Assembly: GCA_044892505.1 (NCBI GenBank)
Contig: CM097883.1
Location: forward strand, 183,706,001-183,770,000
Direction: 5' to 3'
DNA: 64,000 nt
Source: Schmidtea nova
Taxonomy: Eukaryota
Under the pieces are notes generated by a model. That model made no database searches, had not been told where the DNA came from, and was given only the letters and a program-made list of their open reading frames with translations. Shown here one piece after another: positions 1,298 through 64,000 of the stretch. The position numbers were made by a program, and so were the translations under genes. Each line of letters begins with the position of its first letter. Position 1 is the stretch's first letter.

Positions 1298-4288
1298 TAC
1301 ACTATCTGTAGAACATATAGTTGGAAATTTATTGGACTTTCAGGAAGCAATTATTGGACAAAGGGACCTTTAAATCCTTACCTCGGATCTAGAACGGCTG
1401 AGAGCATCAGCATCTATCAGCCGTGGGAAAAGGAGACCGAGCTGCCGATTATTAAAAAGGAAATGAATATGAGGAGAGCAATTGGATGGTTTGTGGATAG
1501 AGACTCCAGTCCCGGAAGACTTATTTTCTCAAACCTCCTAGCTCTCACAGGAGAGGATTTGTCGGTGTCCGTATCAAATTTTGAACGAACAGAAAACCCT
1601 ATTCATAGGCTTTACTGCTCTCGCCAAAACAACTCGGGGCAGCCTGGAGTCTCTCCTAACGTCTTGAGACATATAATGGTAACGGCAGATCAGCTCGAAG
1701 ATCTGATCAAAACCAATTATGATTTTATGTATCAGTCTCTTTTGATTATGCAGAGGTGATGATGAAATTAGAGAAGATAAATACATCTAGAATTCACTAT
1801 CATATAAATTGTTTCACATGTCTAAGACCTATTGATTATTTCAAACTGAGTTCAGATATTGAGTATGAATTCCCAGATGTTTCACTTCAAATGAAACGGA
1901 TGGTTACATGTGAACTATCTTTGTTAAAAAGACTTCCCTTGATGCCAAAGTCCTATCAAATTCATATCAAATTAAGTTCTGAAGAACTTTCTTTTCATAT
2001 AGGAAAAAATCAAGGTTTTTTATGGGGACTTAAGGTGTATCACATCGAAAAGAATCTCTCTGACTCCTGCATATTTTCATACATTATGTGGAAGAAGATA
2101 CTGCCTAAAGAATACTTGTCCGGTCTTTTATTAGGATTTTTGAACGCCACCGTTCTGAATGCTTCAACTAGATGTTTCAGTTCAATGACTACTGAAGCTC
2201 AGATGTTGCTCAAAGGAAGTGTGTGGCACATCATTGACTGCTTCTTGTCTGATGTGAATATAGAGACGATGGTAGAGATAGAATCCTTTTATATATACTT
2301 CAAAAGTCAGAGATCAAACATCTGTGGCTGGTATCCTTAGAAAACCTTCTGACTTCTGATAAACCTCTTTCACTGATACAACTATACATATTTTCTGACC
2401 TAAGCTCTGATTATTTGAGTGTCATGTTCCAGCTTACGGAATACATGATGGACGCTTTTAAAGTAAAAACATTAAATGAACAGTCTCGAGTTAAAATAAA
2501 AATTGGGAAAAGACTTCTCAATGATTTAGAAGATATAGAGCTGGGACATTCCACAGATGCAAAGCAGGTTAGATTGAAAGAGGAGTTATCTCGCAGCATG
2601 TATCCAACAATTGTGTCAATACCCGTGGAATGCAGACATGCCTGTCAAGAGATTAAGATTCAACATACATTTATAGCACTCACACCAGAAGAACTGTTGA
2701 AGTCAGATAGGATAAAGACTTTCCCAGGATGCCAAGTACATGTAATAGAAATATATGATATTATTGGTCATAGAGTTGACCCTCATCGTTTTCGAGACAT
2801 AGAGAAAATTAAATCTTATATAAGCCCCTTAGGATCGGGATTAAGATTGATTCGTCTTTCTACTGGAGCTCAATATAAAATGCAATCTATATTGTTGAAA
2901 TGGAATCTGTCAGGGGATGGTCTATTCATGGGAGATGGCTCTGGCGGAATGTCGGCCATGTATTTAGAATGGGAGCGTGATACAAAGATCATATATAACA
3001 CTATGTATGAGTCGCATCCTGACAGAGGTAATGGTGTTTCATCTGGCACACCAGGAGCATTCCAAAGATTGAAAATATCCGATAGAAATAGATGCGTCAA
3101 CTTACATACCATGTGGCAAAATCCTTCTGATCTGAGTGATGAGTCGACATGGAAATATTTCATAAGAATTATAAATGAGAATAATTTGAATATCAAAGTG
3201 ATTGTTTGTGATGCTGAGATCAAAAATCCAGAAATGACAAGCAGTATAGAACTATTTCTTTTGAAATATCTGGAATTTATATTTAAAATCTCTGACAAGA
3301 AAAAAGAATTGCCCATTACCAACCATATAAGTAAAAGATTATTAATTTATAAAACATTCGGCAATAGAATTTGCGAAAATACTGAGTTTGTAGACTCTTT
3401 ATTGGGAATATTTGAAAAAGTGTACTTCTTTTTCCCTTTCGGACAAGGATCGCAGACCAGCGAAGTTTACTTGGTAGGAATTACTGATTCAGATGAATAC
3501 TTCAGTCCACGCAAACACTTCATATCTAATCTGTCAATACAACACCTTGTAAGATATATCACTCAGAAACAAGATTTAACATATGATTTGAAAAGAACAT
3601 CTGAGATGAATTACTCAAAGATGATAATAAATTATTCACAATTTATCCCATACAGTTCCACTACAGACGTAGCCATATTCTTGCAGGCTATAGGTATATA
3701 TACAGCGGGCGGTGCGAACGATTGGCTCAATCTGTTCTGACATATGCTACCAATAGAGGACATCCTCTAGGCATTCTATACATGATAGGAGGTCTAATTG
3801 GAGAGCAGTTAATTCCGGTCTGCCAATGGTACAACAGGTCTTCACTGGTTCCCTCAACAAGCCATCTATCTTACTTTTTATCTACTCTATACGGGCTCTG
3901 GTATTCTATAGTTTATCTCTGCAATTCAGAACTTTCTTATGGTTTCATAAATGAAAATTTTCAAGTATATCAAAAAGTAGAATTCGGTTTCGTTGAAGTA
4001 ACACATATGAATTAACCGAAAAGGTATAAAGCCTGGAGGATTTTATATGCCACCCTCTTGCCTGATGAAACTAAGACCATCAAAACTGTTTACATTGGAT
4101 CCGAAAGCTCACGAGCTCAAGAAGTCATAAGAATGATGTCTTGCCTCTATAAAGATACTAGATTCCAGAATAAGTCCTTAATTAATTCTGAAATTTGTTT
4201 CATAAACGAATTGTTAGCCAAGCATTATAGAAAATTGTCTATTGACATATTATTAAATAGAACAGGAATAAGTCCTTTTCCAGAGGAT
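1298..4288 (+). pseudogene. L: Endogenous viral element: rhabdovirus-like L protein (capping, connector, methyltransferase and C-terminal domains), frameshifted
   Basis: KGPLNPYLGSRT (GxxT), QPWEKE, IHRLYCSR (HR), GDGSGGMSA, RCVN..WQNPSDL....WKYF, VIVCDAE, LIYKTFG, SQTSEVY and C-terminal INELL...LLNRTGI are collinear with vesiculovirus L motifs as I recall them. Frameshifts near 1750, 2340-2415 and 3720; stop at 4013. Confidence 0.93.
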
Positions 4289-4866: not shown

Positions 4867-6698
4867 ATGAAAAAAAAAATCAAGCGTTTGGAGCTATTTT
4901 GACAAGGACATTAACTCAGAGACACCTAAATGTCTTACATGTCGTAAAGATATGAAATGCAAAGAAGGATCGACATCGGCTCTCACAACACAATTGAAAA
5001 TTAAACCGGGCATTAGTTTAAAAAATATTGAAGAGTCAGAAGAAAATCGCGCAAAAAAGATGAAACGTCAATCAGGTGATATGATTAATTTTATGAAATG
5101 AGAGAGCTTGCCGAAATTTTTAGCGAAGTGTGCTGCATTTGATGGATTTTCCTTACGAGGAATTGTAAATTCAAGTGCAATTAAGGAATTTATCAATAGG
5201 CGGGGATATACGATGCCTCAACATGCATCAACTATTAAAAGTATGGTTGTAGATTTGTCTAATGAAAAAAAACTGGAACTCAGGGACGAACTTTTAAAAT
5301 TAACAAGAACTGGAACACGATTTTCTTTTACCGTAGATAAATGGACAAATATAAAATGTAAACGTTTTTTAAACTTGACTTTGCATGACACTAAAAATGA
5401 ATATAAATTAGGTTTAATGTATATTAAGGATACGTGCGATGCTTTTAATTTAAAACAAATATTACGGAAAAATTAAATGAATTTTATCTTAATTTAAAGA
5501 AAGATATTATAGCATCCACTCACGATGCTGCAGCAGTGATGAAAAAATACAGGAATTTAATTGGCATTAAAAGTCAACTTTGCTATAATCACGCTGTAAT
5601 GGAATTATTTTATAAAAATATTGATGAACGTGTACTTCCTCAAAATGACACTGAAAGTGATAATGAATCTGATGAATCATATGAAATTGATTATTTTAGT
5701 TTTAATGCAGATAAATCTGATAATAATCCGTGTATACACGATTTGCTAAAAAGCGTCCGTAAAATTATCCGATGTTTTAAATATTCTAGTGTAAGAAATT
5801 CTATTTTACAAAAATACGTTTAAGAACAAGAAAATAAGGAATTAGTTTTATTATTAGATTGTAAAACGAGGTGGAACTCCTTGACACCGATGATTGAAAG
5901 GTTTATTAAAATTAAGGAGTGTGTACGAAAATCTATTAAAGATATTAACCAGGAGTTTTTATATAATGAAATTAATTTTAATATATAAGAAAATATTGTT
6001 CATGTTCTGAAACCATTAGAAATTAGCGTTAAAGAATTAAGCAAAACTGATGCAACAATTTTAACGGCGGAAGGAGCATTTCAATTTTTATTTGAGCAGT
6101 TAAAATATATGAATCTCCGTTTAGTTCTGAAATGAGAAATTTATTAACTAAAAGAATATTAGAAAGACGCAATCAAAATTTAGTCACTTTGTTAACTTAT
6201 TTACAAACTACAGTGATTCCTAAAACAGTATTTAACTCAACTCAAGTATATATATCCAAAGCTTCCACAATTGCATACGAAAAACATTATAGGAAGGCTT
6301 TTCCCAAAAAACCTGATATAACAGAAACAGGCGAATCATTCGATGTACTTGTAAATAGAGACACTCACACAATTTCCTCAACTGTCATAACGGATCCGTT
6401 ATTTATAGAATTGCAAAAAAGCATATCTTCCATTATGACAGTTCCATGCCCGAAAGACATTTCGAAGGAATCATTGCAGTTAAATAAAGATTTCAAATCA
6501 TTTGAATCTACCAAAGAACGTACGCCAAATCTAGAAAAATTATATAAAGCATTATTAACGATTAAACCCACTTCAACTGCAAATGAACATGTATTTAGTG
6601 TTGCTAATAATTTTTGCACCAAAATTAGAAATTCTATGCACCACAATACACTTGATGCATTAGTTTTCTTAAAATATTATTTTTTAAATAATAAATAA
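4867..6698 (+). pseudogene. Inner hAT transposase (BED finger, DDE core, dimerisation domain), disrupted
   Basis: SSVWSYF..CLTC (BED), FSFTVDKWT..KRFLNLTLH, CKTRWNSL, TIKPTSTANEHVFSVA..LDALVFLK; several stops and frameshifts. Confidence 0.88.
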
Positions 6699-7159
6699 AA
6701 AAATGTGTGTTATTTTATTGTATAAGTAATAAGTATTGTATATTTCTATTTTTCTTACATTTTGATATTTGTGTTCATTATGATGAATTTTATTGTATAA
6801 GTAATAAGTATTGTAAATTTGTCTTTTATATTTTGAAATTTTTGTTCATTATGATGAATTTTGTTGTATATATTTTACAATGTACGTATAACTTCTCTTA
6901 TTCACCACCTTTGAAAACAAAAATAAAAGAATTATTTCCTCTTTTCGTGTTTCATTACCTATTTATATTTATTTATTATACCTATTTTTAAACAATCAAA
7001 CTATTAACATATAATTTTAACAAATGTTTACATTTTTTTTAATTTTGCAAATTACGTACTTGATTTTCTGAGGACAGTTTTAACCGGTTAACAGGTTTTT
7101 GATACGTAAAATACCCGAAAACCGGTTTGTACTTTTCCTCCGGTTATTTAGATGCCCTA

Positions 7160-8894
7160 TTCCAGAATGGTATTCCAAAAACACACCAAGAACACAGTTT
7201 CCAACTTATCCATGACATTCGCTAAATTTGTTGCTTCTGATCTCGTTTCTTTCTTTTGCAAACTGTTGCTGCCACTTTCTTGCAAAACAGATTGGTAGGT
7301 TTTATAGTGCTGATACATACTTCGTAGTGCAACAGCATGAGCAGACCACCGCGTGTCACTGAACCGTTTTGGAAGTAGTGCAGACTTTGACTTATCCGTT
7401 CCGATTACCTTTCGGCTGACAGCATCTTTGACAAGATTCCATCTATATGTCGAATCAGACAAGAAAACATAAATGTTCTGAACAAATCCGAAAAATGCAA
7501 CTGCCTCAATGCAAGCGTCAACAGCTGCAACCCCAGACAGATTCAGTGAGTGTGCCATACAAGGAATATAGGACGCCGTTTTTATGATTTCAATTATACG
7601 TGCCTGTACACCAGAATATTGTCCAGACATATTGCTGGCATTGTCGTATGTCTGACCTCTGCAGTCATTTAAATCAATATGAAGATCGCGAAAAGTTTCA
7701 ACAATTGTATCGAAGAGATGAAGACCGGTGTGTGACGAAATTTGAACAAATTTTAGAAAACGTTCAACAGGTTGGCCATTACTTTTCATATAGCGAACCG
7801 TGAAAGTTAATTGATCTGTGTGTGATATATCAGGCGTAGAATCAACACTGAAGGAAAAGTACTTTGCCCTTTTTAATTCATCAATAATACCTTTGGTGAC
7901 TTTTCTGGCCATAAGACCCACAAATTCTTCATAAGTAGTGGATGATAGGTATGATGTGATGCCATGTCCAGCATTTCCATGTGTCAATATGTTCCGCAAT
8001 AAATGAATCATATTCGGCTAAATACTCCAAACAACCTAAAAAGTTTCCATTATCTGCACTTCCAAAGGTTTCTGAAGATCCTCTGAGTGATAATCCACAC
8101 GATATGAGGAATTTTATTGTAGAAAAAACTCTCTTTAAAACTTCTCTCCAATAATGTTTTTGTTTCACAGCGTGCTCCCAAATTGATTTGTCCAAAGTCT
8201 GAACATTGGATATACGCGTTGCATAAGTGGGTAGAGCATATCTGTGATCAGCTGATTTTTCGTGTTGTTCAAGTCGATTTATGGTACTCCAGCTGTCAAA
8301 TCCTGTAGTCGCAAGAGCAGACGAACTGTTTATCGAAAACAGTTTACATACAAAATAAAAAACGCATCCAGATGATGGCGAATACAAAAGCCAATGCCTT
8401 TGAATTTTTTCTCCATTGTGAGATTGTGAGTAAAATGCTGAATCATTAAGTTTTCTGTTACAATTGGTATATTTCCTTAACGAATTTGCATAAACTCCTT
8501 CACGGTTTGCACACGCATTGGGCCCAGTGTGAAGCCAATAATTCACAAGATTACTATCCAGTACATTCCAAAAGGCTGGATCAGTTACAGAAATAATATC
8601 ATGTTTAGCAGTGTCAAACAAAGTTAGCGTATTTACGATTGATTCAGCCAGGATGATATTTAGTTGTTCTGATGAAGAAGTTATTTCATCAAAATCGTTT
8701 TCTTGCGGCGAAACATCTGTTGCAGATGAACTTTGTAGTAATTTCTCAGTATCAGCTAATTTTATTTCAACGGATTCACTATAAGTTTCAGATCTTTTAA
8801 CAAACTTATCGATTCCGCCACGTTGCAGTTCTGCCGCCTTTTCAAAAAGACGTTTCTTTTGGCGTTTTTGTGCGCCAGATTCAAATTTTTTCAT
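7160..8894 (-). pseudogene. N-terminal part of outer ZMYM1/Tip100-type hAT transposase (TTF zinc finger, DUF4371-like region)
   Basis: MKKFESGAQKRQKK, WLLYSPSSGCVFYFVCKLF, HEKSADH, LSLRG..GNFL, YFSFSVDSTPDISHTDQLT, CRGQTYDNASNMSG, PCMAHSLNL, DTRWSA; frameshift near 7980. Confidence 0.92.
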
Positions 8895-9617
8895 GGTTTA
8901 ATAGTAAATGTTAATTATTGTTAATATTAGTGTTAATAATAATATTATTGATAATAATGTTTTTAAAAATAATTATAATATACTATTATGTAATTTTGTG
9001 TGACGGTCATATTTAACTTATATTCGAATTTTAGTCTTGTAGACCCTCCAACGGCCACACAAAATATTTAAAAAAATCTCTAATCTAGCAAAGCATGAAT
9101 GAATGCGGTGAAAAGAAAGTAACATTCTACTACGCCGGTTAGATAATCTCAAGAGAGCGAGGCTAGAAGAATGTTATAATGCAATGATTTAGTAACACAT
9201 GTGGGATAAATATCGGATTCCTTGTCTAAATACAATATGTCAAGTTATTTATCTCCTATAACCAGATATACAGATATAAATTGTGGTAGTATTCAGTTGA
9301 CTGAAGAAAGTTTCAAGTTTCCAGATATAATTATATGCTGCGCCAACGATGCCAACGATCGTATGCCCATCACCCGGTCTGCTCAAATACAATCGGGTAC
9401 ATACATGCTACTAATGCCTACAGCCATGGACTCTATATCATAATATAGGAGTCCATGCTACAGCTTATCTTAATACAGATATGCATCTTGATCCGACTGT
9501 AAGGGATACAAGGCTTATCTGGCTATATCATCTTGCATAAAATAATAAGAACCATATATTTTTGTTCTATTTTATTTTAGCCGACAAATATTGTAAATTT
9601 GTTAATTTCATAGTAGG

Positions 9618-50821: not shown

Positions 50822-51568
50822 TTTAGATTTTCTTAATATAATATCTAGATTTTTAAATTCTTTCTTTATTAAAACGATTTACCAATTATAAAGTTGAGAG
50901 ATTTTAAATATTATAAATTAGATTTTAATAATTAAATATTAAGTGACCTGAAATTACATTTAACTAGTAAAAAAGTAAAGAAAAAAATATTTAAGAAAAA
51001 TCAATTTTTAAATAAGTTGCCTAAAATTCTGGTTATTGTTAAAAATTTACAATGAGCAATTGAGCTTCGTTACCGAAATTGCTCTTTATTGAATTGGGTT
51101 CATAGCTGCTAGTAGAAGGTACTACGTATACTTTAACTTTTTAGAACATACTTGTTCATTAGTTAGTTTTTCTTGAATCGAGAATATCTAGCGTTTACCC
51201 CAATTTAAGCATTTGATTTCATGAATTTTCCAAATCTTTGATATGACTGTTGGGTTGATGAAGGAACGGATAATGGCGAAAAGTAAACAATTAATCATGA
51301 GAGAATAAAGAAAAAATGAAGAATGTAAAAATAATAATAAAACAAATAAAAAATGACAATTAACAATAAAAGCACAATTAAAACAAAAATAAGCAGTGAA
51401 AAAGCGAGGAAAATGACAAAATATGTGAAATATGAGTAAAAGGCAAAAAATAAAGAGAATAAAAGAACAATAATAAAAATAATAACGAAAAATAATAAAA
51501 TAATAACGAATAATACAAGATAAAATAAATTAATAAGAAAATCGAGCGTTTAACCAATAAAAAGGTTA

Positions 51569-51612
51569 CTCGATTCTGATTGGCTGCCTGAGCGTCGATT
51601 TTAATATATAAG
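51569..51612 (+). promoter_or_regulatory. Y-box (CTGATTGG) plus TATA
   Basis: ctcgattctgattggc...tatataag, followed by a GT-AG intron around 51783-51854. Confidence 0.5.
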
Positions 51613-52921
51613 GAAGCGCTCAGGTCAGTCAATTTAATGTCATTTATATCAACATAAAATCACTCTGCAATTTTCACTCGCACAAGTATCCACAGTCAAG
51701 TACGCCATTATCAGTTCAAGAAGAATTCAACAACGCTCGAGGAAGAATCGCTGAAATATTGTGCATAAATCAGAAGGAAATTGTAAGTAACTTGTTATGC
51801 CAAATATAAATTTTAACCATAAATCATATTTCGTTTTCATTAATTGTATATAGATAATGCGAGAGTTCGGCGATCCCGTTGATTGTCAGCTCTCCGGGGA
51901 GATCCATCTTTGTTTCGTGTCTCGGCACGGGGCGAAGATGGGTTGCTCCGTAAAGACCTTTTTATGATGGACAGGGAATGAGTGAATGTCCGGAGGCCGT
52001 TGCAGCATCAAAATATCAAAACTACATATAATCCGTAGGAAGCGAAAACGTTGATTGAGAAACCTACTAATTTTTAGAAAAATCCAAAACGGCTGCGTTC
52101 GTTGAAATTTTTGATAAATCTCTAGAAAATATCACAGTAAATCCAAGCGAAATCGTGAGTTTCCATCTAACCGTTGTAAACCAGTTCCTATAGTAGGTGA
52201 AATGCGTTTTGGGTATGAAAAGATTGAAACATAAAATTGATAAAATTCCAGCTCTAATCGTTTACCCATTCCCACCAAATCGTATAAAACTGCCTGCACA
52301 TAATAATTCATGCGATTACATAATTATGCCTAATAACCTCTCTAATGATTCACAGTCAAATCCAATGCCCGAGCGAATTATTGAAAACCCCGTAGATACC
52401 GTCAAGGAATGCGGTAATTACAGATATGAGATAGATTAGAGATTCATCAAATACATGAGTCCTTAACCGACAGCGATTTCGTTGAGAATAGGAAATAATT
52501 ACCGGAAAGGCAATTAGCGATGCTTTCGTAGTTCTTACTAGAGTTCGCAGAAATCTAATAATTGGCCTGAAATTGCTGGCTCCGAGAAAGTAACAATTAC
52601 CGATTGTAAGAATAATGATCATAATTAAATGCTGAACATCTCAAAATTGGTCAATTAAAATAATCTCAATCGAGCGAAAAATCAACATGAAATGAGAAAT
52701 CTAGGGGAGAATGATAATTGATAAAATGGGGAAATTTCGGGAACCTTACCCTACATAAGCGTCATTGATACTGTTCGCAAATCATGAAACATATAATAAA
52801 TAATTAATTCCCCAAATATTACTAAGCGAGTGAATGAGGCGAGAGCGAGGACACATGATGGGGGGCGCGGTATATAAATTGTGAATTACCCATTTCTTGT
52901 ATACTTAGACATTCACGAACG

Positions 52922-53425
52922 ATGTATTATACCGGAATTCAAGTTACAGGACCTCAAGGAGAGACTCGGAGAGAGAAAGATTTCATGGACGAGACGCGGA
53001 TGTACGATACGCACCTAATGATGCTCATGCCGCTCAAGCCGATCCCAACTGAGTTGGCCAATGAGATCCTACACGAGCACAAGGAGGAATTCGAAAGGAC
53101 GGGAATTGCCCCGCCGTTTAGCCTGTTCCGAGACGGTCCATCGGATATCATTTGGCATGGCAGCAGGGAATGGCCGATCAACGTGGATCGCCCTCGCTGG
53201 CCAAACCAGGCGAAATACTTTGTGGAGACTCCCACCGAAATTCCCGGGAGATACCAAGTTTATTATCAAGGCGAGATTCCGCAAGAAGAGTTCCTGAGTA
53301 CGGGACGATTCGTGTTCGCCCCGGCTCCATCTCCAAGTCCGACGGAATCACCATACAGCCCTTCAACGCTTAGTGATGACAATAGCGACGACAGCGAGGT
53401 CGAGATCATCGCCGAATATTATTGA
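52922..53425 (+). CDS. LTR-encoded 167-aa protein with Ser/Pro and acidic tail
   Basis: GC box + TATATAAA at 52861-52878, intact ORF, AATAAA at 53506. Confidence 0.75.
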   Translation: MYYTGIQVTGPQGETRREKDFMDETRMYDTHLMMLMPLKPIPTELANEILHEHKEEFERTGIAPPFSLFRDGPSDIIWHGSREWPINVDRPRWPNQAKYFVETPTEIPGRYQVYYQGEIPQEEFLSTGRFVFAPAPSPSPTESPYSPSTLSDDNSDDSEVEIIAEYY

Positions 53426-53860
53426 ATGTGATCAACTGTACCTGTATTAACCATCAATTATATGTTTCTTTGTGTAGTTGTTTTTCCTCTATTCACTTGT
53501 TTAGTAATAAAAAGTTGTAAAGTAAAGGAAAATAAAAGGTCATCGCGTAAGCACTCCACCGACAGTAAACATGCAATAAACTAAAAGAGATAGTAAATCC
53601 AGTAGCGTAATACAAAACTAAAGTTTTAGGAAATTAGGCAAAAGCACAGGAATAGAAATCTGTTAGGTTAAATGCACTGCACTCGTATACAAATATATAG
53701 CGTTTAGTCCACGAAGGATAGCCACCAACCGAGGAGGCGAAGAGGTGGAGAAAACCGAGTCGTAACCAAGTAAGGGTCGAGTATAAATCCCTCGTTTTGC
53801 GATTAAAAACTAACTCAATAATTACGAATATGCTTCTGTCTTCTAGTAAAGAAAAGAGCC

Positions 53861-54292
53861 ATGGACGAGAAAACTATAGGACAATTGAAGAGGAGACTCA
53901 TTGACCTAGAAAGCAGTTATTTTTCACCGACAGAAATGAAGAAGGTGAAGGAGCAATTGATCAGGGCAACGCAGGTTATGCAGGATCAGAGACAAGAGAT
54001 AGATGCCCTAAAAATCGAACTCAAAAATTGTAGAGCATTCATCACAGAGAAATTCATAACGGACAACCTTAAAAACTTAATTCGCCCGATAACGTTAGAA
54101 AGATGGTTTCCCACACCAGATCAATCAATAAGTACCGAAATCGAGATGCCAATACCGCCAACCACAAAGCGAAAACGAAGGAAATCGCACGCACAACGCC
54201 GACAACAGTTGAAACTGAGTATGGAGGTCGACACCAACAAAATGGTCATCGATGTGAACAGTATTGGAACAACAGGCGTGAAACGCAAATAG
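53861..54292 (+). CDS. LTR-encoded 143-aa coiled-coil/NLS protein, positional analogue of 40620-41183
   Basis: TATAAA at 53782, KRKRRKS, VIDV, AATAAA at 54311. Confidence 0.75.
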   Translation: MDEKTIGQLKRRLIDLESSYFSPTEMKKVKEQLIRATQVMQDQRQEIDALKIELKNCRAFITEKFITDNLKNLIRPITLERWFPTPDQSISTEIEMPIPPTTKRKRRKSHAQRRQQLKLSMEVDTNKMVIDVNSIGTTGVKRK

Positions 54293-54803
54293 TGATTGTA
54301 ATGTTATGAGAATAAATATATGTATTTAAATAAAAATGTGTTGTTATTTGTTAGACGAGAATTGAATTAAATAAAGTAATAACGACAAATGAACTCCAGT
54401 TTTCATCGACTCATAAAACCGTAAATAACAAAGTAACTAATAGGAACAATAAGTATAGGGGCTGGATGGTAATATAGGAAATAGAGAGCAAACACCCAAA
54501 ATGAGAGACCTAAATACAGGGTGAGGAGAGTTACAACGAGACCTTCTATCGGTCAAGCTAGAACCCGAACGATGCGACAAGTCAGGAGTAGTTCTTGTGA
54601 AGGAGCTCACCTGCTGGCTTGCGATCGGCTGTTATACACAATTCCAACGTGAAGGATTAGGGTAATTCACGGGTGTATGAACAGTTAAGTTTTTATGTGT
54701 GTGTTGGACCCTAGAGAGCGAAGAAGAACGTTTTTAGAAAGAGAAAGTGAAGAAAGCTGATTCAGAGTTTGAAATTTTTTAACAGAACACACCAACATAA
54801 ATT

Positions 54804-54821
54804 TGGGGGCTCAGCCGGGAT
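54804..54821 (+). promoter_or_regulatory. tRNA-Pro primer-binding site
   Basis: tgggggctcagccgggat, identical to 26308-26325. Confidence 0.9.
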
Positions 54822-56631
54822 TAAAGCGATTTCATTGTGAAAAAATATGAACAATAATGAGAAAGAGTGTTGAAACACACCATCAGCAGGGAAATTATAA
54901 TAGAGAAAAAAGGGAAACTACGGGCGCAGACGGAGTCAATAAGAAAAGCAGAAACCATAACGATATCGTAACGCCGAGGCGACATTTCTCATGAAACCAG
55001 GAAAAGGTCAAGTAGTAGATAGAAACATAAAAGAAACGAAACACCACTACTTCAAATGTACTAGAAAAGGAACCGATGGCTCACCAACATAAATTTGGGG
55101 GCTCGAAATCAATAGTGGCTCTATTGGAAAAAGCAATAACAATAATAAGGACCGGGGATCTAAAGCGATTTTATTGTAGACAAATATGAACAATAATAAG
55201 AAAGAGTTTCGAAACAATAACGAGCATAAATTTGGGGCTCAGATGGAAGTGACCCTATTGGGAACAAAGAGGGATTAACAAGCAACCCAATGAGGAGAAT
55301 GTGGAAACTATGGCAACAGACGGAGGTAGCAGGAAAAAGTAGAAATTTAACAATAGTGCAATGTCGGGACGACATTTGGGAAACCGCCGGGAGAATTGGA
55401 CAAGAAACGAAGCAGATTACTACTTGGGATAAGTCGAAAGAAACCGCAAATCAATCAACATAAATTTGGAGCTTAACGAGTGGCTCTATTAGGAAAATAG
55501 TGCAAATAAGTAGAGAAATAAAGGTATAAAAGTAATAAAAGGAAAAGCAAATAAATCGTATGTATAAAAGTACTGTATGGAAGGTATTTAGGCAAAAGTA
55601 TAAAAGTAGTAAACGGAATGTAAATAAATTAGGAATGTAAAGCATAAAACGGTAAGTGCATGTATAGAACAATCGAAAAGAGGGCATGTTGTAAATAACG
55701 CAAGTAAATAAAACTAAAATAACAAGACAAAAATAAAAACAAGGAATAAGCGAAAATAGGAACTAAAACACGGGGACGACAGTAATTAGGAATAGGGGGT
55801 TACACAATCAATAAGCTAAAAACAAGTGAGAGGGATAGACAATTAAATTATAAAGGGGTAAACAAAGTAATAATATCAAGGGATAAATAAAATGATAATA
55901 CAATGGGGTAAACGGGAACAAAGAGATAAAAAGACGGGGTTGGATAATTGCGATAAATAAACTAACAAGGGGATAGAAAACAACCTGAACAAGTGGGAAA
56001 ACGTGCGCTTGGGAAATGATCGGTGGATAAACGCTAACGCAAGGGGTAAATAAGAAAGAAAAAAAAGGATATGATGAGATAATAAAAGTTGGGGATTGAA
56101 TAGTAAAGAGAATGGAGCTGCTGACCGGTTTTCGGACATTCACCACTGTCGAGAGAGGAAAACGAGATGTGAAAATGTGTGTATAAATGACAAAATAATA
56201 ATTTTTGAGCTACCTTCGAGTAGTACGTTAGGAATCCCATGGGTAAACCGACAGATCAAACTAACTAGGGAAATATAGGACGGGGCCCATCGCATATGTC
56301 GGAAAACCTCTGTGGTGTGACTGATCACCATACCGTGCAGTGGGGGACCGACGCGATCGTGTTATATCTTTTTGGTTGGGGAGAGAAATAGGAAAGCCTA
56401 GGGGAATAAGAAGCGCGCTAAAACAAAAATAAAAATAAGAGAAGTAAATGGCCAGTTGTTACCCAGAGATAGGAAGCGTTATAAAATAAAAGAGATAAGC
56501 TGGCACAAAAGAGATGAAATTAAACGACGTCGTAGTGAATTGATTGGGATATGTAATCAGCTCTTGAGAATTTATAAAGTTACTAGTAACGTGGATAAAG
56601 AAATGGTAAATAGAGGAACAATTGTAAACGA

Positions 56632-57119
56632 GAGATGCTTTGAAACATAAGCCATAGAGATGCTTTGAAACATAAGCCATAGAGATGCTTTGAAACATAA
56701 GCCATAAAGATGCTTTGAAACATAGGCCGCAGAGATGTCTTGAAACATAGACCAGATGAAATTGAGGAAATCCTGGAATGCCCTGTAATGTTCGGGTCCA
56801 GATGAAATTGAGGAAATCCTGGAATGCCCTGTAATGTTCGGGTCCAGATGAAATTGAAGAAATCCTGGAATGCCCTGTAATGTTCGGGTCCAGATGAAAT
56901 TGAGGAAATCCTGGAATGCCCTGTAATGTTCGGGTCCAGATGAAATTGAAGAAATCCTGGAATGCCCTGTAATGTTCGGGTCCAGATGAAATTGAAGAAA
57001 TCCTGGAATGCCCTGTAATTTTCGGGTCCAGAGGAAATTGAGGAAATCCTGGAATGCCCTGTAATGTTCGGGTCCAGAGGAAATTGAAGCAATCCTGGGA
57101 TGCCCTGTAATTTTCGGGT
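56632..57119 (+). repeat. Adjacent tandem arrays: 25-bp unit x5, then 46-bp unit x8
   Basis: gagatgctttgaaacataagccata from 56632; ccagatgaaattgaggaaatcctggaatgccctgtaatgttcgggt at 56752 and every 46 bp. Confidence 0.95.
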
Positions 57120-57241
57120 CCAGATGGAATATTGTCGGTGAGCAAAGAGGGGGATGTCGACTTCAACTCAAACTAGCAGCCGATTCTGACCAGCAAAGAG
57201 GGTGGGGAAGCACCCATGCCCAAACTAGCAGTCAGACTATT

Positions 57242-57380
57242 TCCGGCCAGAAGGAGCCGAGGATAATGATGACGGCCATAGGAAGCCGCTGTTGATTTAC
57301 GGCCATAAGGAGCCGCTGTTGAATATTTTCGGCCAGAGAGAGCCGCTGTTGAATTAATGATGGCCAAAGAGAGCCAATAG
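57242..57380 (+). repeat. Degenerate ~30-bp repeats (ggcca..gagccg)
   Basis: About five imperfect units. Confidence 0.75.
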
Positions 57381-58223
57381 TGAATAATAATCCGGATTAA
57401 AATGAGGAATATTTAGGGAAGTATCAAGGTGCGCACCAAAGAATAGTCAAAGGAGCTCTGTAGAGAATCACGTGATTGAGAGGAAACTGATTACATATCG
57501 CCAAAATAAAGTATAGAGAACCGCGGATTAAAGCAAATTGAGGTAAGTAAGCGAATCAAAGATAAAGTGAATTAAGGATAAAGTGAATCAGATTGAGTAA
57601 ACGAATAGACTAGGTAGACAAATAAAGTGAGATAGAGAATAGAATAGAATAAAATAGGAGAATAAGTGAATTAAAAGGCATTGAAGCCAAAGAGATAAAG
57701 TGAATTAAGCAAAACGAATAAAGCAGAATAGGGAAATAAAGTGATTTAAAGTCTCGAGACAAAAGGGGGAAATTGAGGCTAATAGGCCAATGAGTAAATT
57801 AATGTAATGAGATAAAAGGTAAGGAAAATAAGGGATCCCATGAGAAATAAGAGAGAAGCTCGAGTAGATGTAATAAAAGAGGAAATCTCAAACGATAAAA
57901 GGTTAAAAGGGTAAGAAACCCAATAGAGCGGAATCGCGCTAAAATAAACGGGGGGTGTGAGAAAAATATTAATTGGTGTTATGGTAAAACTATAGATAAT
58001 TGATGCGACTCTATAGATAATTGTTACTACTGGATAGATAATTTAAATAGACTCAAAATCAAGGGAAATGGGATATGGGGAAAAATTCAAAGGAAACCGT
58101 AAAGACCCATTAAAGCTTAACCACGAACGAAAAGAAATCGTTGAAGTGATTTAATTGTAATTTAGATCACAAAGCAATCCAAGTAACAATCAAAAAGGAC
58201 AAATCAAAACAAGAAAGGATTAA

Positions 58224-61200
58224 GTCGTAGACAAAACAGGAACCATTGAGAAATCATACTTCCTGAGACACAGTACAAGGGTTGACATAGAATTAACACC
58301 AGAACAAGCGGAGAAAATCAAGAGAAATCGATCGCTATCGTTAAAAAGACAACCACTAAAACCCCTTGGGAAACAATTGTCGGATATTAGTGACAAATCA
58401 AGCGATAAAGAGAATCAACCGAAACCAAAACAAAAAGAAAATAAAAGAAAGACTAGAACAAACAGAACAAAGTCAGAGAACGACGAAATAAATATAACCC
58501 CAGTAGAAACAAAAGTAGAGAACGAAGAAATAGATACCACCCCAACAGAAAACAGAGAGATAGAAAGAATAGAAAACGTAGTAACCCCAGAAGTGGATAT
58601 AGATAATAATAATAATACAACAAGAGATAGCGGATTCGAAAACATGACGGAAGTAGAAGTTAAAAAGGAAGAATTGAGGGAAAAATTTAGAGGCGAACCA
58701 TTCAGTGGTGACGCTAGTAAATTTGACGCGTTCATAAAGGAATTTAGCATATATATAAGAGTATGCCGATGGACAGATGTCACGGTAGTCGAAAGGATAT
58801 CGTTGTATTTAAAGGACAGCGCTCTCGACTTTTATGAAGAAGCGAGAGGCAGAGAAAGAGCACCCAAGAATTGGGAAGAAATAAAAGTGTTTTTACAGGA
58901 AACGTTTGGAATGGCTAAGGTGTTAGACCAAGCATTCGACGACTTTTCAGAAAGGAAACAGAAGAGAAACGAATCCAACGCAGTATTCGCTAGTGAACTA
59001 AGAAGATTAGCTAAACTAGCAGAAGAAGGTGGAAGTATAATAAGCGAAGGACTATTAACCGCTAAATTCGTCCGAGGATTGAGGAGACCAGATATACGAG
59101 CACAGGTGGGATGCAAAGGATGCGTCAACCTGGACAAGGCATTAGAACTTGCAAACAGATTTGAGTTACACATGACGGTCAATGACGCAAGAATCGCCGT
59201 AGCAGCAAGCGAACTAAAGGAAGATAAACCGGTGGAATATGCAACCTTGAAACAATCTATACCAAACGCACATTTATTATTCAAAAGTGCTCCAGCCGGA
59301 AGAAACAACGACAATAACTCGCAGAACAATAACTGGAGGAACAATTCAAGAAACAATGGGAATAACAACACAGGATCAAATAGACAATGTCAATTATGTG
59401 GAAAAATTGGACATTGGCAACAGGATTGTTTCCGAAACATGAGTTGCAACAAATGTGGAAAAAGAGGACACACGGGGAATATTTGTCGAGCCAACAACTG
59501 TTTTAATTGTGGAGGATCAGGTCACTTGGCACGAGAATGTCGATCTGGGAACAACCAACAGGGAAATAGACCAAACAATGGGTATCGACAAAACACGGGA
59601 AATCGGACTAGCCCGAGTAATAACCAGAACAGTAGAGAAATAAGACTGATGCAGGAAGTAAACAGGCTATCAGAAGTGATAGAGGGGATGGCAAAAGCGA
59701 ATCAAAAGAATAACCCGCAAAAGATTAACATGATGAGGAAGACGGAAAACGAAAACGATAGAATAAACGAAGAAAGCAAACAAAGACACTTACAAGAGTG
59801 GCAAAGATTACAACGAGAAGAAGAAAGAGTGAAACAGGAAAGATGGCAACAACAACAAAACGCACCAAGAATAAACATGATGAGAGCATTCAAGAAGATA
59901 AAGGAACAATACTGGTATAACTACGAGAAAACCCCAAAGGAAACAGGAGATGTAGAGGTAGAACGAGGAATAGAAGAAGAAGAGACTCTTGAGAATAACG
60001 AACCAAAAGCCATAGAGGAAGGCGGAAGGAAGGAAGAAACGATAAGCGACAATGGCAACGCGGAAAACACAATTAAAGAGGAAGAAGAGAAACCAAAAAG
60101 GATGCTTGTGATAATGCCAAATGACCACGTATACGCATTTCGGTATGATGCAAAGGAACGAGTAGGAGACCTGATGCGGAGAATAAAGGAACTATGTCCA
60201 GAGAGGCTAGTAAGTAACGTAGAGATTTACTGGAAAACGAAAAACAAGCCCGAGAGAAGAATAAGCGAAACGGACATTTGGGAAGAAATAGGAATAGAAG
60301 TGAAGGAAAACAATTACTTGGTCCTTCGAAAAAGAAAAGAAAGAGAGAATAATGGAAGTGCGATACCCAGAAAAAGTAGAGTACAAGAAATATTTACCGA
60401 GCGACTCAGGATAAGAGCCGAAAAAGAAGTTCTGGAAACGAACCAGTCAGGCGTAAGAACATTACAAGATTTGTTAGATAAGGAAAACAACGAGACAAAC
60501 GAGGACCTAATCAAACCAGAACCAAGCACAGAAGAAAGAAAACGAATACATCTAGCGCAAATCAACATGATGAGAAACATAGGAAATGAATCCTCAGACG
60601 AAGAAGATAGCACAGTGAGTAGTTTAGCGGGAGACATATTACAAGAAACGAGACCGAGCGAAGAAGTTATGGAAGTAGATGAGAACAAAGAAAACGAACC
60701 GGAGATTAAAGTGGACAACGACGAAATAGACAAATTACGGGAAAATGCGTTGGAAGTGATCAGAAATGAGGAGTTCATAGAGGAATCCTCATATAGGAAA
60801 TTTGTGAAATTAGTGTTACAAGTAACTACGACGTTACCACAAGTTGATATATTACGAAATGAAGAGAAGAAGATAGTTGCAGAATATGTGAGCGGTATGA
60901 AACAAGAACCAACGGTAGAATACATAATACAGTTGTGGACGGAAGAAACCCTACCACGGATATGGATCAAGACAACGAATACAAACGAATTATATGAATG
61001 GGTAAGGGATAGATTAGGAAATTCGAACAAAAATAAGTCAATATACGTGGACGATTGGAAGATAAAGGCCAATACATCGCTAAGAGACGCACTTATATGG
61101 TCAGGTGAAGTGACGACGTTAACATTGAGTAAAGAACAAGTGGAAGTCGACCCGAGAAAATGGGCTAAAGAAGCCAATATAAGATTCAAAAATGGGATAA

Positions 61201-64000
61201 AACCACAGTTAAAAACAGCTAAGGAAAGGATATTAAGAAATAATTTAAATAAGTGGTCTGACCAAATAGTAGGACAAATTGAGAAAAATTGGGATAAGCT
61301 GATAACAGAGGAATTTAAGAACGTAAAAGAATGCATAGAAAACATAAGAGATACCGAAAAGATAAGATCGTCAAGATATGAAACCAATAGGTTAATAGGA
61401 AAGTTTGGAAAAACGATGTTTAAGAAAGGAGAAATAACGGGAGTTAAGGTGACAATAAAATTACCAAACGGCGAAGAAACGGAAATACATATAGAAGTGG
61501 GTTGTACGATTCGGGAATTGATGGAAATACTAGACAATACAATCCTACAGAGAGTAAAAGAGCAAAACGACGATGAGTATGAAGACGATATAGTGATAAT
61601 GTACAACGGTCACTTGTTGGAGAAACATGAAGAGATGTGTTTATATAGACTAGGCATATGGGATGACAAGCAGACGATAAGTATCATACCGATGGACGAT
61701 CCAGAGAGAATTACCCCAAGAGATGAAGCAAAAGCGAGAGAATTTCAAGAGGAAATGAACAAAAAGTTGAGACGAATAATGGATATATACGGACAATGGA
61801 GGAGAAATCCGAAATTCGGAGAACTATTAGAAGAATTAGACATGGAGCAATGTCGGAAAACACCTTGCGAGAAGGAGTGGGACGAAATCAATAAAGGTTG
61901 GACGATAAAAGAAGGAAGATATGCGGAAAAGGTTAAAAGAGAGATGGAAGACAAAAACGAACCAGATGCAAAACGGATTTGCATGGTAACACGAACAACT
62001 ATCCTACCCACAGATATAGACGGACCAGAATCAGCAGCCATACAGTTAGGTATGGAGAAAGCAAAAACGGAAGAGTTGATGGATATACTAAAAAGAAATG
62101 CACCACATAGAAGACGTACCGTGAAAAGTCTAGCAGAGTATATCATAGCAAATGTGGAAGACATTGACAGTTTAAGAAAAGTAGTAAAAGTCATTGAAGA
62201 ATACCGAAGAGGAAACGAATGGGTACCAGAACAATTAAACCAGGTAATCCGGAAATGGAGAAACCAAGAATGGGCACAAGAACGACTCGAGAGATTAAGC
62301 CTAAAGATAGTCTACCCACATTACAAGAAGGAGGAAATATGGGTACAACTTACGGAAAAAATTAGAGACATCAAAAAGAAATTGGCCTATGAGACGCCAT
62401 TTCATCTACAGCATCAAGGAAGATCATTAGACGATAACATGGAAATTGGAATAACACCGGTAGTGTTAGGAATTACAAATACGTTAACAGTAGCCGAAAT
62501 AGATGGACACCCACTAATAAGGAAGGAAGAGAGGAGATTAAAAGGTAGTATGAGTACACCAAGCCCACTAAAAGCAATAGCATCTCCAGAAACCGATCGG
62601 AATAGACCATCAACATCGTCAACAGAACAAAATAAAAGGGAACAATCACCAAAATCCTATGATGGTGATGAGATATTAATAGATAGTGATGATGCGTTGG
62701 AAGAATTAACAAAATTAACCATGAGAGAAAATGACAACATATTCGAAAGGATGGAACAACCAACGACATCTCAAATAAATGAAGTAGAAAAAGGAATAAC
62801 ACAAGAGGTAGTAATAGAAGCAGTTGACGAGGCGGAAGGACAATATTATCCACCAATGGAACAAGCAAGAGAACCACGAACAAGTGGAGAAAATCTGCAA
62901 TTGACCCAAGATTGGAATAACTGGCTGATGAATCGAGAAAACGACACAGTAGATAACATAGAAGAAAGAAGCAAAACAGTTAAAGAAATAGGTACGTCAA
63001 TGGATAAACGACCAAGGGGTCGACCAAAGTTAAACCCGGCAGAAATTATACCAAAGACTAGAGAAGAAAGGAGACAGGACCAATGGCAAATACGATTAGG
63101 GAAACTGGGAAAAATAGCAGACACGATTAATAAAGATAATATGCAGATAAAACAAGGGGCCGAATGGATCGAGAAATTACTCATGGAAGTGTTAGGGATA
63201 ATAGACCCAGAATTAAGAAAATTATGGTTACAAGACCAAGTAAGTGAAGGAGCTCGATTGCTACACAACGCTATTTCATCCATATTACCGGAAATAATCA
63301 AAGAGAAGACCAAGGCAACTCAATTGGATTGGGAAGGTGCAAGGAGATTAATAAGAACGCTAGTGGAAGAATCAGAAACACATGCAAAATATCTAGTGGC
63401 ATTAACATATACCATTTATAATTTACTCACATTGAGTAGAGGGAGAACACAGAGAATGTCATTCAGAAGACACGTAAAAGCCACGGCGCACATTATCGAA
63501 GTAGAGATCGAACCATATATCCTAAGAACTGGAGGATGGGAAAGATTTATAAAGGAAAAAAAGAACAAAGACCAAACAAAACCAACACAAAAGAAATTTA
63601 GAGAGTTGTTAAAGGAGTTAGAAAATGAAAGTACGACTATGGAAAACGGGAGGCCAATCACAACTTGGAATTCAGTAATTCTAATGTTGTTGATATGGAT
63701 GATGAGTGCAGAAGGAAATGCAGCGTTTGAAGTGTTCGACTGCGATCAAATGCAGTTAGGAGACAGATACTCGTTAAGAGGAACAGAACAATGTAAAGAC
63801 GCGAATCCAGTTAAGTTGAAAACGTTGAACAAGAAGATATTTTACCATGTGTATCAAGAATCAGATCTGATCCGGACAGAAGTTCAAGAATGTACAGTTA
63901 CTAGATCGAAATTTGCGTTTTACTGCGGCAGATCATCATACTCAGCAATCGTACTACCAGGAACAGATAAAAAACCCGTACAGTTATCAAGGAAAGGATG
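58224..64000 (+). CDS. gag: Giant Gag-accessory-glycoprotein polyprotein (open to window end; first ATG at 58644)
   Basis: Translated by hand, no stop from 58224 to 64000. Capsid-like FSGDASKF..WEEIK..F; CCHC x3 (59388-59540); Ubl-like domains; KRPRGRPK; EPYILRTGGWERF; signal/anchor; FDC..YSL..C..C..YCG. Confidence 0.9.

Follow-up and report, generated by a model that had tools for sequence, protein, structure and literature searches.

Among described elements, the closest to the one treated here are the Burro/GYPSM1 elements of Jurka 2007 and Grohme 2018, as related by PMC6431247. As that account has it, Burro has one open reading frame (ORF) of about 4,900-5,100 residues, encoding a Gag with two or three zinc knuckles, MATH, Ubi2/SUMO-like and BCL2-like domains, an env that sits between gag and pol in the same frame, and also a protease, a dUTPase-like domain, reverse transcriptase (RT), RNase H, integrase, BIR and ankyrin repeats. 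The same paper already proposes that Burro is a provirus meddling with apoptosis and ubiquitination. BURRO1 is expressed upon smedwi-2 knock-down according to PMC8532177, and the passages on Burro in PMC11410931 and PMC13309565 merely mention it. A second described group comprises six GAG-ENV-POL elements of S. mediterranea, Smed_errantivirus_1-6, with an Env of the type of gB in herpes simplex virus (HSV) (PMC13524379). Non-autonomous retroelements with swapped segments are also a known kind. PMC10924933 gives as trans-complemented precedents among endogenous retroviruses (ERVs) bovine ERVK C/D, MusD/ETn, KoRV/recKoRV and IAP I-delta-1, and the TR-GAG elements of plants, as presented in PMC4350172, are non-autonomous long terminal repeat (LTR) elements that keep Gag, lack the enzymes and are still active. 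Here we analyze a giant LTR retroelement of Schmidtea nova that starts in a window of 64,000 nucleotides (the whole stretch of DNA analyzed; contig CM097883.1 of assembly GCA_044892505.1, positions 183,706,001 to 183,770,000, forward strand) and that lacks RT, RNase H and integrase, a condition hereafter called pol-less.

We consider it likely that the window element is a Burro-type giant Gypsy LTR retroelement with the GAG-ENV-POL layout, in a non-autonomous recombinant form; that it is kin to Burro at all is very probable. The element measures 25.2 kb and has 3.55-kb LTRs, a tRNA-Pro primer site and a 4-bp target duplication (Table 1). Its polyprotein frame counts 1,925 codons with zero stops, has its first Met at codon 141 and is still open at the window edge, confirming the run of more than 1900 codons noticed in an earlier inspection of the letters alone (the sequence-only reading). 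The chance of such a frame, given the base composition, is about 1e-61. We read the contig onward past the window end, in separate stretches, as far as the 3' LTR, which the sequence-only reading had proposed as a check; extended coordinates are contig positions minus 183706000 and carry on the window numbering past 64000. The LTRs were found, and RT, RNase H and integrase were missing from all nine frames scanned between the window end and a second unit. The latter shares the middle LTR with the window element, is 99.97-100% identical to it, has two identical LTRs and carries a further 6.4-kb internal deletion; the duplication TGAC borders the first and third LTR and encloses both units. Given this identity, the tandem reflects a recent local duplication or an assembly effect. 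Between the second frame of the polyprotein and the second LTR lies an accessory block of four ORFs: one of 121 codons, a RING-zinc finger-MATH (TRAF-like) gene of 473 codons, a charged helical one of 429 codons and one of 219 codons with one membrane helix. Homologues of the TRAF-like gene occur at 44-48% in many other copies. Three further places of this gene were considered as a new spliced or deleted form and rejected, all being 5'-truncated fragments.

The loss of pol is shared by most close copies. Seven places in the genome, the window included, match a 2-kb query at 97% or more over its full length, and we examined all six others; one haploid assembly was searched, so that genome counts are lower bounds. 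Five of the seven (the window copy and four others) are pol-less, and two carry the RT-RNase H-integrase-ankyrin part. These pol-bearing sisters are 97-98% identical, and their form is about 4.6 kb longer, about 30 kb in total. All five pol-less copies share both breakpoints to the base: they leave the pol-bearing layout after the protease and return to it ten codons before the stop. In between, 6.7 kb of pol and polyprotein tail are replaced by a 2.08-kb ankyrin segment. In each of the five copies the 5' junction is in frame, and it lands on an INMM-R-like motif also found in Gag; an eighth, partial copy has the swapped segment too, with its 5' junction interrupted. The segment gives no megablast alignment with the tail of its own family and is 79-80% identical to the region directly after the integrase in another, pol-bearing family. 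Among the 40 matches listed for it, 6 stand at 92% or above and 34 at 79-80%; five of these 34 places were examined and all lie in the pol-bearing family. In two copies, a 5' patch is 87-91% identical to the donor-like family and 80-81% to the window, which indicates that cross-family recombination recurs. RT-RNase H is 90-92% identical across three families, and the autonomous relatives have many long open frames. As pol is missing here and present in sisters, the window copy is a non-autonomous derivative and not an autonomous member.

The pol-less form has moved repeatedly. Target duplications are TGAC, ATAG and CTAA in pol-less copies, and AAAG and TTAC in pol-bearing ones. In four pol-less copies, the two LTRs of each copy agree at 99.4-99.9%, against 93-94% between their LTRs and that of the window, so that these are recent, independent insertions from already diverged sources. 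Distinct target duplications together with near-identical LTR pairs imply that the pol-less form retrotransposes with enzymes supplied in trans, and we regard such mobilization as highly likely. The copies have what a trans-mobilized non-autonomous element would show: LTRs and primer site are kept, the enzymes are absent and there are several independent insertions. The sequence is present in four sequencing runs of one study, with no RNA run among those listed, a result that does not bear on expression. One pol-less copy is inserted within the long ORF of another element, whose Bcl-2/Env-motif frame resumes past the 3' LTR of the insertion. At 50.7-51.0 Mb of contig C3, at least seven decayed pieces of the element, 73-75% identical, are clustered.

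To describe selection, we computed pairwise omega between the diverged pol-less copies. It was about 0.07-0.19 for Gag, 0.13-0.28 for the ubiquitin-like (Ubl) region, 0-0.06 for the Bcl-2-like domain, 0.04-0.09 for the 5' part of env and 0.11-0.32 for the swapped segment; for the TRAF-like gene it was mostly 0.12-0.23. Variants in the swapped segment among six copies gave an omega of 0.15-0.27 (p 5e-5 or lower); once two mosaic patches and the variants in donor state were taken out, it was 0.22-0.23 (p 5e-5 or lower). These values carry no correction for transition bias, and sites with multiple changes or three states (16 to 43 codons) were dropped. Judging from these comparisons, the coding frames, swapped segment included, are under purifying selection, with an omega of about 0.2. 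Between the window copy and its closest sister, changes in the swapped segment (0 silent, 7 replacement) and in the TRAF-like gene are almost all replacements, the neutral pattern expected of decay after insertion. It is reasonably probable that the selection acts on the pol-less form itself.

The alternative that survives best is that pol-less copies are passive passengers, whose frames look selected through recombination with autonomous elements, among them perhaps a closer ankyrin-segment donor absent from the assembly. Mosaic patches are indeed present, and one pol-less copy is near-identical to a pol-bearing one in Gag (0 replacement changes) and in the TRAF-like gene. Moreover, the counts come from one haploid assembly as lower bounds, so that a closer pol-bearing donor could be missed. 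We consider this explanation unlikely, as omega stays near 0.22 once patches and donor states are removed, for shared and single-copy variants alike, the 5' junction is in frame in all five copies, and none of the matches listed falls between 80% and 92% identity.

Like this possible missing donor, several other points weigh against a Burro-type, selected and trans-mobilized element. All eight close copies examined have a polyprotein frame broken somewhere, and in the window copy it is interrupted within env, past the window end. This break is private to the window copy, since sister copies read across that point; programmed frameshifting was ruled out as its cause, as the sisters keep one frame there. 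Two of the five pol-less copies have no established target duplication, one lying in a microsatellite and the other having interrupted LTRs. The omega estimates ignore transition bias and treat sites that are not independent. Membership in Burro rests on architecture and on an Env comparison made by eye, MATH lies here in a separate downstream RING-zinc finger-MATH gene (in Burro1 it is in the polyprotein and in the D. tigrina element upstream), and no BIR was detected in the frames scanned, unlike in Burro1. The assignments of the third and fourth Ubl domains are weak, the Bcl-2-like call is transitive, and the cleavage sites, membrane topology and cis preference proposed below are ones that we infer.

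A categorically new element, different in kind from Burro, seems very improbable. Up to four Ubl domains, an AT-hook and a full TRAF-like gene downstream are absent from the Burro description as given in PMC6431247, and the large libraries searched held no protein relatives. However, the domain order, the single frame, the size class and the scale of the LTRs are as in that description, and Env is clearly related to the S. mediterranea GAG-ENV-POL elements presented in PMC13524379. An origin of the pol-less copies in DNA-level duplication or mis-assembly, instead of retrotransposition, is scarcely credible: the second unit of the tandem, with its near-complete identity and identical LTRs, would fit, but the dispersed copies, for which this explanation is largely refuted, lie on two chromosomal contigs with differing flanks and target duplications, and the two LTRs of a copy agree much better than the copies do with one another. 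A contig of one public run, possibly from the assembly's own source, spans the 3' junction.

Within the polyprotein, the capsid, the three CCHC knuckles and the start of the fusion glycoprotein, all named in the sequence-only reading, are firm profile assignments (PF03732, PF00098 and PF24664). In a sister copy, PF24664 matches at E 8e-77 across 605 amino acids (aa). Searched by sequence against the PDB, Env matched nothing; its kinship to published elements suggests that it is of the gB type, with about 52 identities to Smed_errantivirus_5 (by eye) in the first 100 gap-free residues. Of the hydrophobic anchor or signal claimed ahead of Env, a short stretch of about 10 residues survives, which a 17-residue hydropathy scan missed; it is probably signal-like, rather than a demonstrated anchor. 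The AT-hook holds as a conserved motif and has no Pfam match. A motif of the INMM-R type recurs near domain borders (aa 501, 550 and 780 of the window polyprotein; aa 489 of the second frame), and these recurrences are candidate protease sites.

Three to four Ubl domains had also been claimed. We searched an AlphaFold model built from seven sequences (mean predicted local confidence, pLDDT, of 40) against 48,161 chains, and two of the domains stand by their beta-grasp folds (model residues 5-91 and 279-354), with SUMO/ubiquitin-like chains heading the results and block pLDDT of about 60-77 for Ubl-1 and 50-66 for Ubl-2. The third remains below cutoff, as do matches to three other ubiquitin-like Pfam families, and profile-profile comparison with the other three Ubls gave probabilities near 1%. 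The fourth is a lead from Atlas, with scores of 0.83-0.85 to ubiquitin/SUMO-like clusters; it has no Pfam or PDB match, and AlphaFold gives it a low-confidence helix. PDB profile searches with the four Ubl alignments, each separately, returned nothing below E 0.04. A small helical bundle ahead of Ubl-4, which the sequence-only reading had not named, had a single helical structure match at Z 9.1 that is uninformative.

The claimed Bcl-2-like domain fares in part. Searched alone, the region has no match; a joint profile of six sequences including it finds Bcl-xL at E 7e-8, and the region is colinear with a related family whose own score lies at or close to the cut-off of PF00452. The support is transitive because three of the six rows of the profile were originally found by a Bcl-2 family model. 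The putative domain retains the GGW of the BH2 region and lacks the NWGR-type BH1 motif of host genes, so that ordinary BH3 binding should not be assumed. A single-sequence fold was uninformative (pLDDT 41), confidence was also low in the seven-sequence model, and an Atlas search gave no named family. Comparison of aa 1350-1925 with longer proteins found none of 2,228 candidates related. Against 1.84 billion representatives, the region had two matches, both to repetitive proteins, which we judged artefacts.

Table 1. Features of the window element (extended coordinates continue the window numbering past 64000).
Feature	Position	Strand	Basis
5' LTR	51248..54797	+	3,550 bp, TG...CA
Two short ORFs within LTR (188 and 156 codons)	52859..54292	+	Present in other copies' LTRs
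Primer-binding site	54804..54821	+	Complementary to 3' end of host tRNA-Pro(TGG)
Untranslated leader, 3.4 kb	54822..58223	+	Sequence
Polyprotein frame	58224..63998 in window; continues to extended 65018	+	ORF reading
Gag capsid, Retrotrans_gag PF03732	58797..59087	+	E 7.6e-8, piece scanned alone
Three CCHC zinc knuckles (nucleocapsid)	59388..59540	+	CX2CX4HX4C x3 at aa 389-439; PF00098 E 2.3e-9
Ubiquitin-like domain 1 (beta-grasp)	60096..60335	+	Best VIA Z 10.6, root-mean-square deviation (rmsd) 2.4, 80 aligned
Ubiquitin-like domain 2 (beta-grasp)	60909..61136	+	Best VIA Z 10.1, rmsd 2.1, 72 aligned
Probable ubiquitin-like domain 3	61437..61700	+	PF11976 E 0.0055, below cutoff
Small helical bundle	62025..62291	+	AlphaFold block pLDDT 64-81
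Possible ubiquitin-like domain 4 (lead only)	62289..62531	+	Atlas; 62-67% identity across families
AT-hook-like motif KRPRGRPK	63006..63029	+	Invariant in 7/7 aligned sequences
Putative degenerate Bcl-2-like domain	63060..63560	+	Joint profile; colinear with related family
Short hydrophobic stretch, probable internal Env signal sequence	63675..63722	+	Sequence; sits at PF24664 match start
Fusion glycoprotein start, PF24664	63678..64000	+	E 1.4e-8 in window
Second frame	extended 65002-68574		Remainder of env, protease, ankyrin repeats
Second and third LTRs	extended 72871-76428 and 88094-91651		Recurrences of 5' LTR

The two ORFs within the LTR have no Pfam match. In the leader, three more repeats resembling the primer-binding site occur at 55088, 55225 and 55459, followed by 25-bp and 46-bp tandem repeats (56606-57165). 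The tRNA-Pro(TGG) genes of the host form a tandem array with a 308-bp period on contig C1 near 459.61 Mb, and the corresponding motif has 1,106 genome-wide matches.

Reverse transcription of retroelements is primed by a tRNA within a Gag particle, and co-packaged RNAs can recombine. RNA made from the 5' LTR would be translated as a single protein of about 3,450 residues. Env would enter the endoplasmic reticulum (ER) by way of the short hydrophobic stretch that follows the Bcl-2-like domain, and the membrane helix of Env would bring the protease back to the cytosol. The topology would probably be a cytosolic Gag-Ubl-Bcl2 part, an internal signal, a lumenal Env, one membrane helix, and a cytosolic protease with ankyrin repeats, reminiscent of some RNA virus polyproteins. 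The protease would liberate the modules at the repeated INMM-R-like sites, the one at the swap junction included, and co-assembling autonomous relatives would supply RT, RNase H and integrase. The Gag-Env-protease part is most likely kept because packaging would favour RNAs that encode their own Gag. More speculatively, the Ubl, Bcl-2-like and ankyrin modules, together with the TRAF-like gene outside the polyprotein, would probably dampen death or signalling of the host cell. We propose only tentatively that the element makes enveloped particles. The fuller picture of a 25-kb helper-dependent enveloped satellite retroelement is more doubtful: it would have its own Gag-Env particle and a selected Ubl/Bcl-2-like/ankyrin/TRAF cargo, take RT and integrase, within mixed particles, from other Burro families, and pass from cell to cell in an animal in which stem cells are the source of a renewed germ line.

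Other features of the window and of related elements were recorded. At 1723-3740 (+), two frames match a mononegavirus-type capping methyltransferase (PF21080 E 5.6e-12, PF14314 E 3.4e-43) and are probably a fragment of an endogenous viral L gene. Remains of a hAT-type transposon (PF05699, DUF4371) lie at 6096-8897. A decayed sister element occupies 30881-34954 (+); its integrase-ankyrin frame shares 56-58% identity with related families' pol tail and is followed by an FN3 frame that ends in a hydrophobic stretch and matched none of eight stretches of other families. Long ORFs of 1,444 and 1,342 codons adjoin related copies, with only a weak Endonuclease_7 match. By hand count, about 51 of 150 listed relatives have open frames above 5,000 codons, many of exactly 5,140 from stop to stop, a figure that equals the one PMC6431247 gives for the D. 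tigrina element and that may be chance. A shorter family has 1.1-kb LTRs and frames of about 3,070 codons that comprise Gag, an AT-hook-like motif, a Bcl-2 part (close to the cut-off of PF00452), Env, protease, RT, RNase H and integrase; its Env resembles that of Smed_errantivirus_3 by eye.

The sequence-only reading was right to see an LTR retroelement that bears env and joins modules of ubiquitin and apoptosis type in a single frame, and to ask for a comparison with Burro. The absence of RT, RNase H and integrase and the recombinant, non-autonomous nature of the lineage were beyond its view. It had flagged this architecture as potentially novel, unless an already described family had it, and on this point the Burro description in PMC6431247 decides against novelty. 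Since the in-frame Gag-Ubl-Bcl2-Env-protease design is in print for planarian Burro elements (PMC6431247) and GAG-ENV-POL elements with a gB-type Env are catalogued for S. mediterranea (PMC13524379), the flagged architecture is not new and adds a family, not a kind. What is new is more modest: an in-frame, cross-family swap that created a 25-kb non-autonomous lineage, apparently still selected for Gag, Env and cargo. Neither a pol-less Burro lineage nor a full TRAF gene downstream was found in the literature searched, the figures and supplements of Grohme 2018 and Jurka 2007 excepted. The lineage amounts to a natural deletion experiment on a 5,000-residue polyprotein: Gag, Ubl, Bcl-2-like, Env, protease, ankyrin and TRAF appear to be needed in cis and under selection, and RT, RNase H, integrase and the tail appear borrowable. 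Selection on Env in a form unable to copy itself lends indirect support to the idea of enveloped Burro particles.

Compared with Burro, the window element has the same single giant frame starting with a retrotrans_gag Gag and three CCHC knuckles, and then a Ubi2/SUMO-like domain (PF11976) and the transitively supported BCL2-like one ahead of env. Env lies in frame between gag and protease, as seen in the sisters, the window copy being broken inside env. It resembles fusion proteins of the mononegavirus type, and ankyrin repeats and multi-kb LTRs are likewise common to both. Burro elements carry MATH/TRAF within the polyprotein or on an accessory ORF, and some have BIR; here a TRAF-like accessory gene lies downstream, and the frames scanned gave no BIR match. 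The window element differs in having more than one Ubl domain and in that the protease-RT-RNase H-integrase-ankyrin ORF, present in two sisters and in related families, is absent from the window copy and four sisters. A quick RT tree, built without Burro references, places three unnamed proteins in one group with the four local families (SH-aLRT 98). The window element agrees in gene order with Smed_errantivirus_1-6, to which its Env is kin and which were chosen as intact elements with pol (PMC13524379); 'Bcl', 'ubiquitin', 'Burro' and 'lacking pol' are absent from the main text of that paper. As for the non-autonomous elements, bovine ERVK D has no intact ORFs in the account of PMC10924933, whereas the swap described here preserves the frame, and purifying selection appears to act on the Gag-Env-protease-ankyrin part. 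TR-GAG elements, as characterized in PMC4350172, are under 4 kb and carry Gag only, whereas this lineage adds Env, protease-linked cargo and accessory genes. The window copy works like a helper-dependent Burro, and falls outside the autonomous Burro elements solely through its missing pol.

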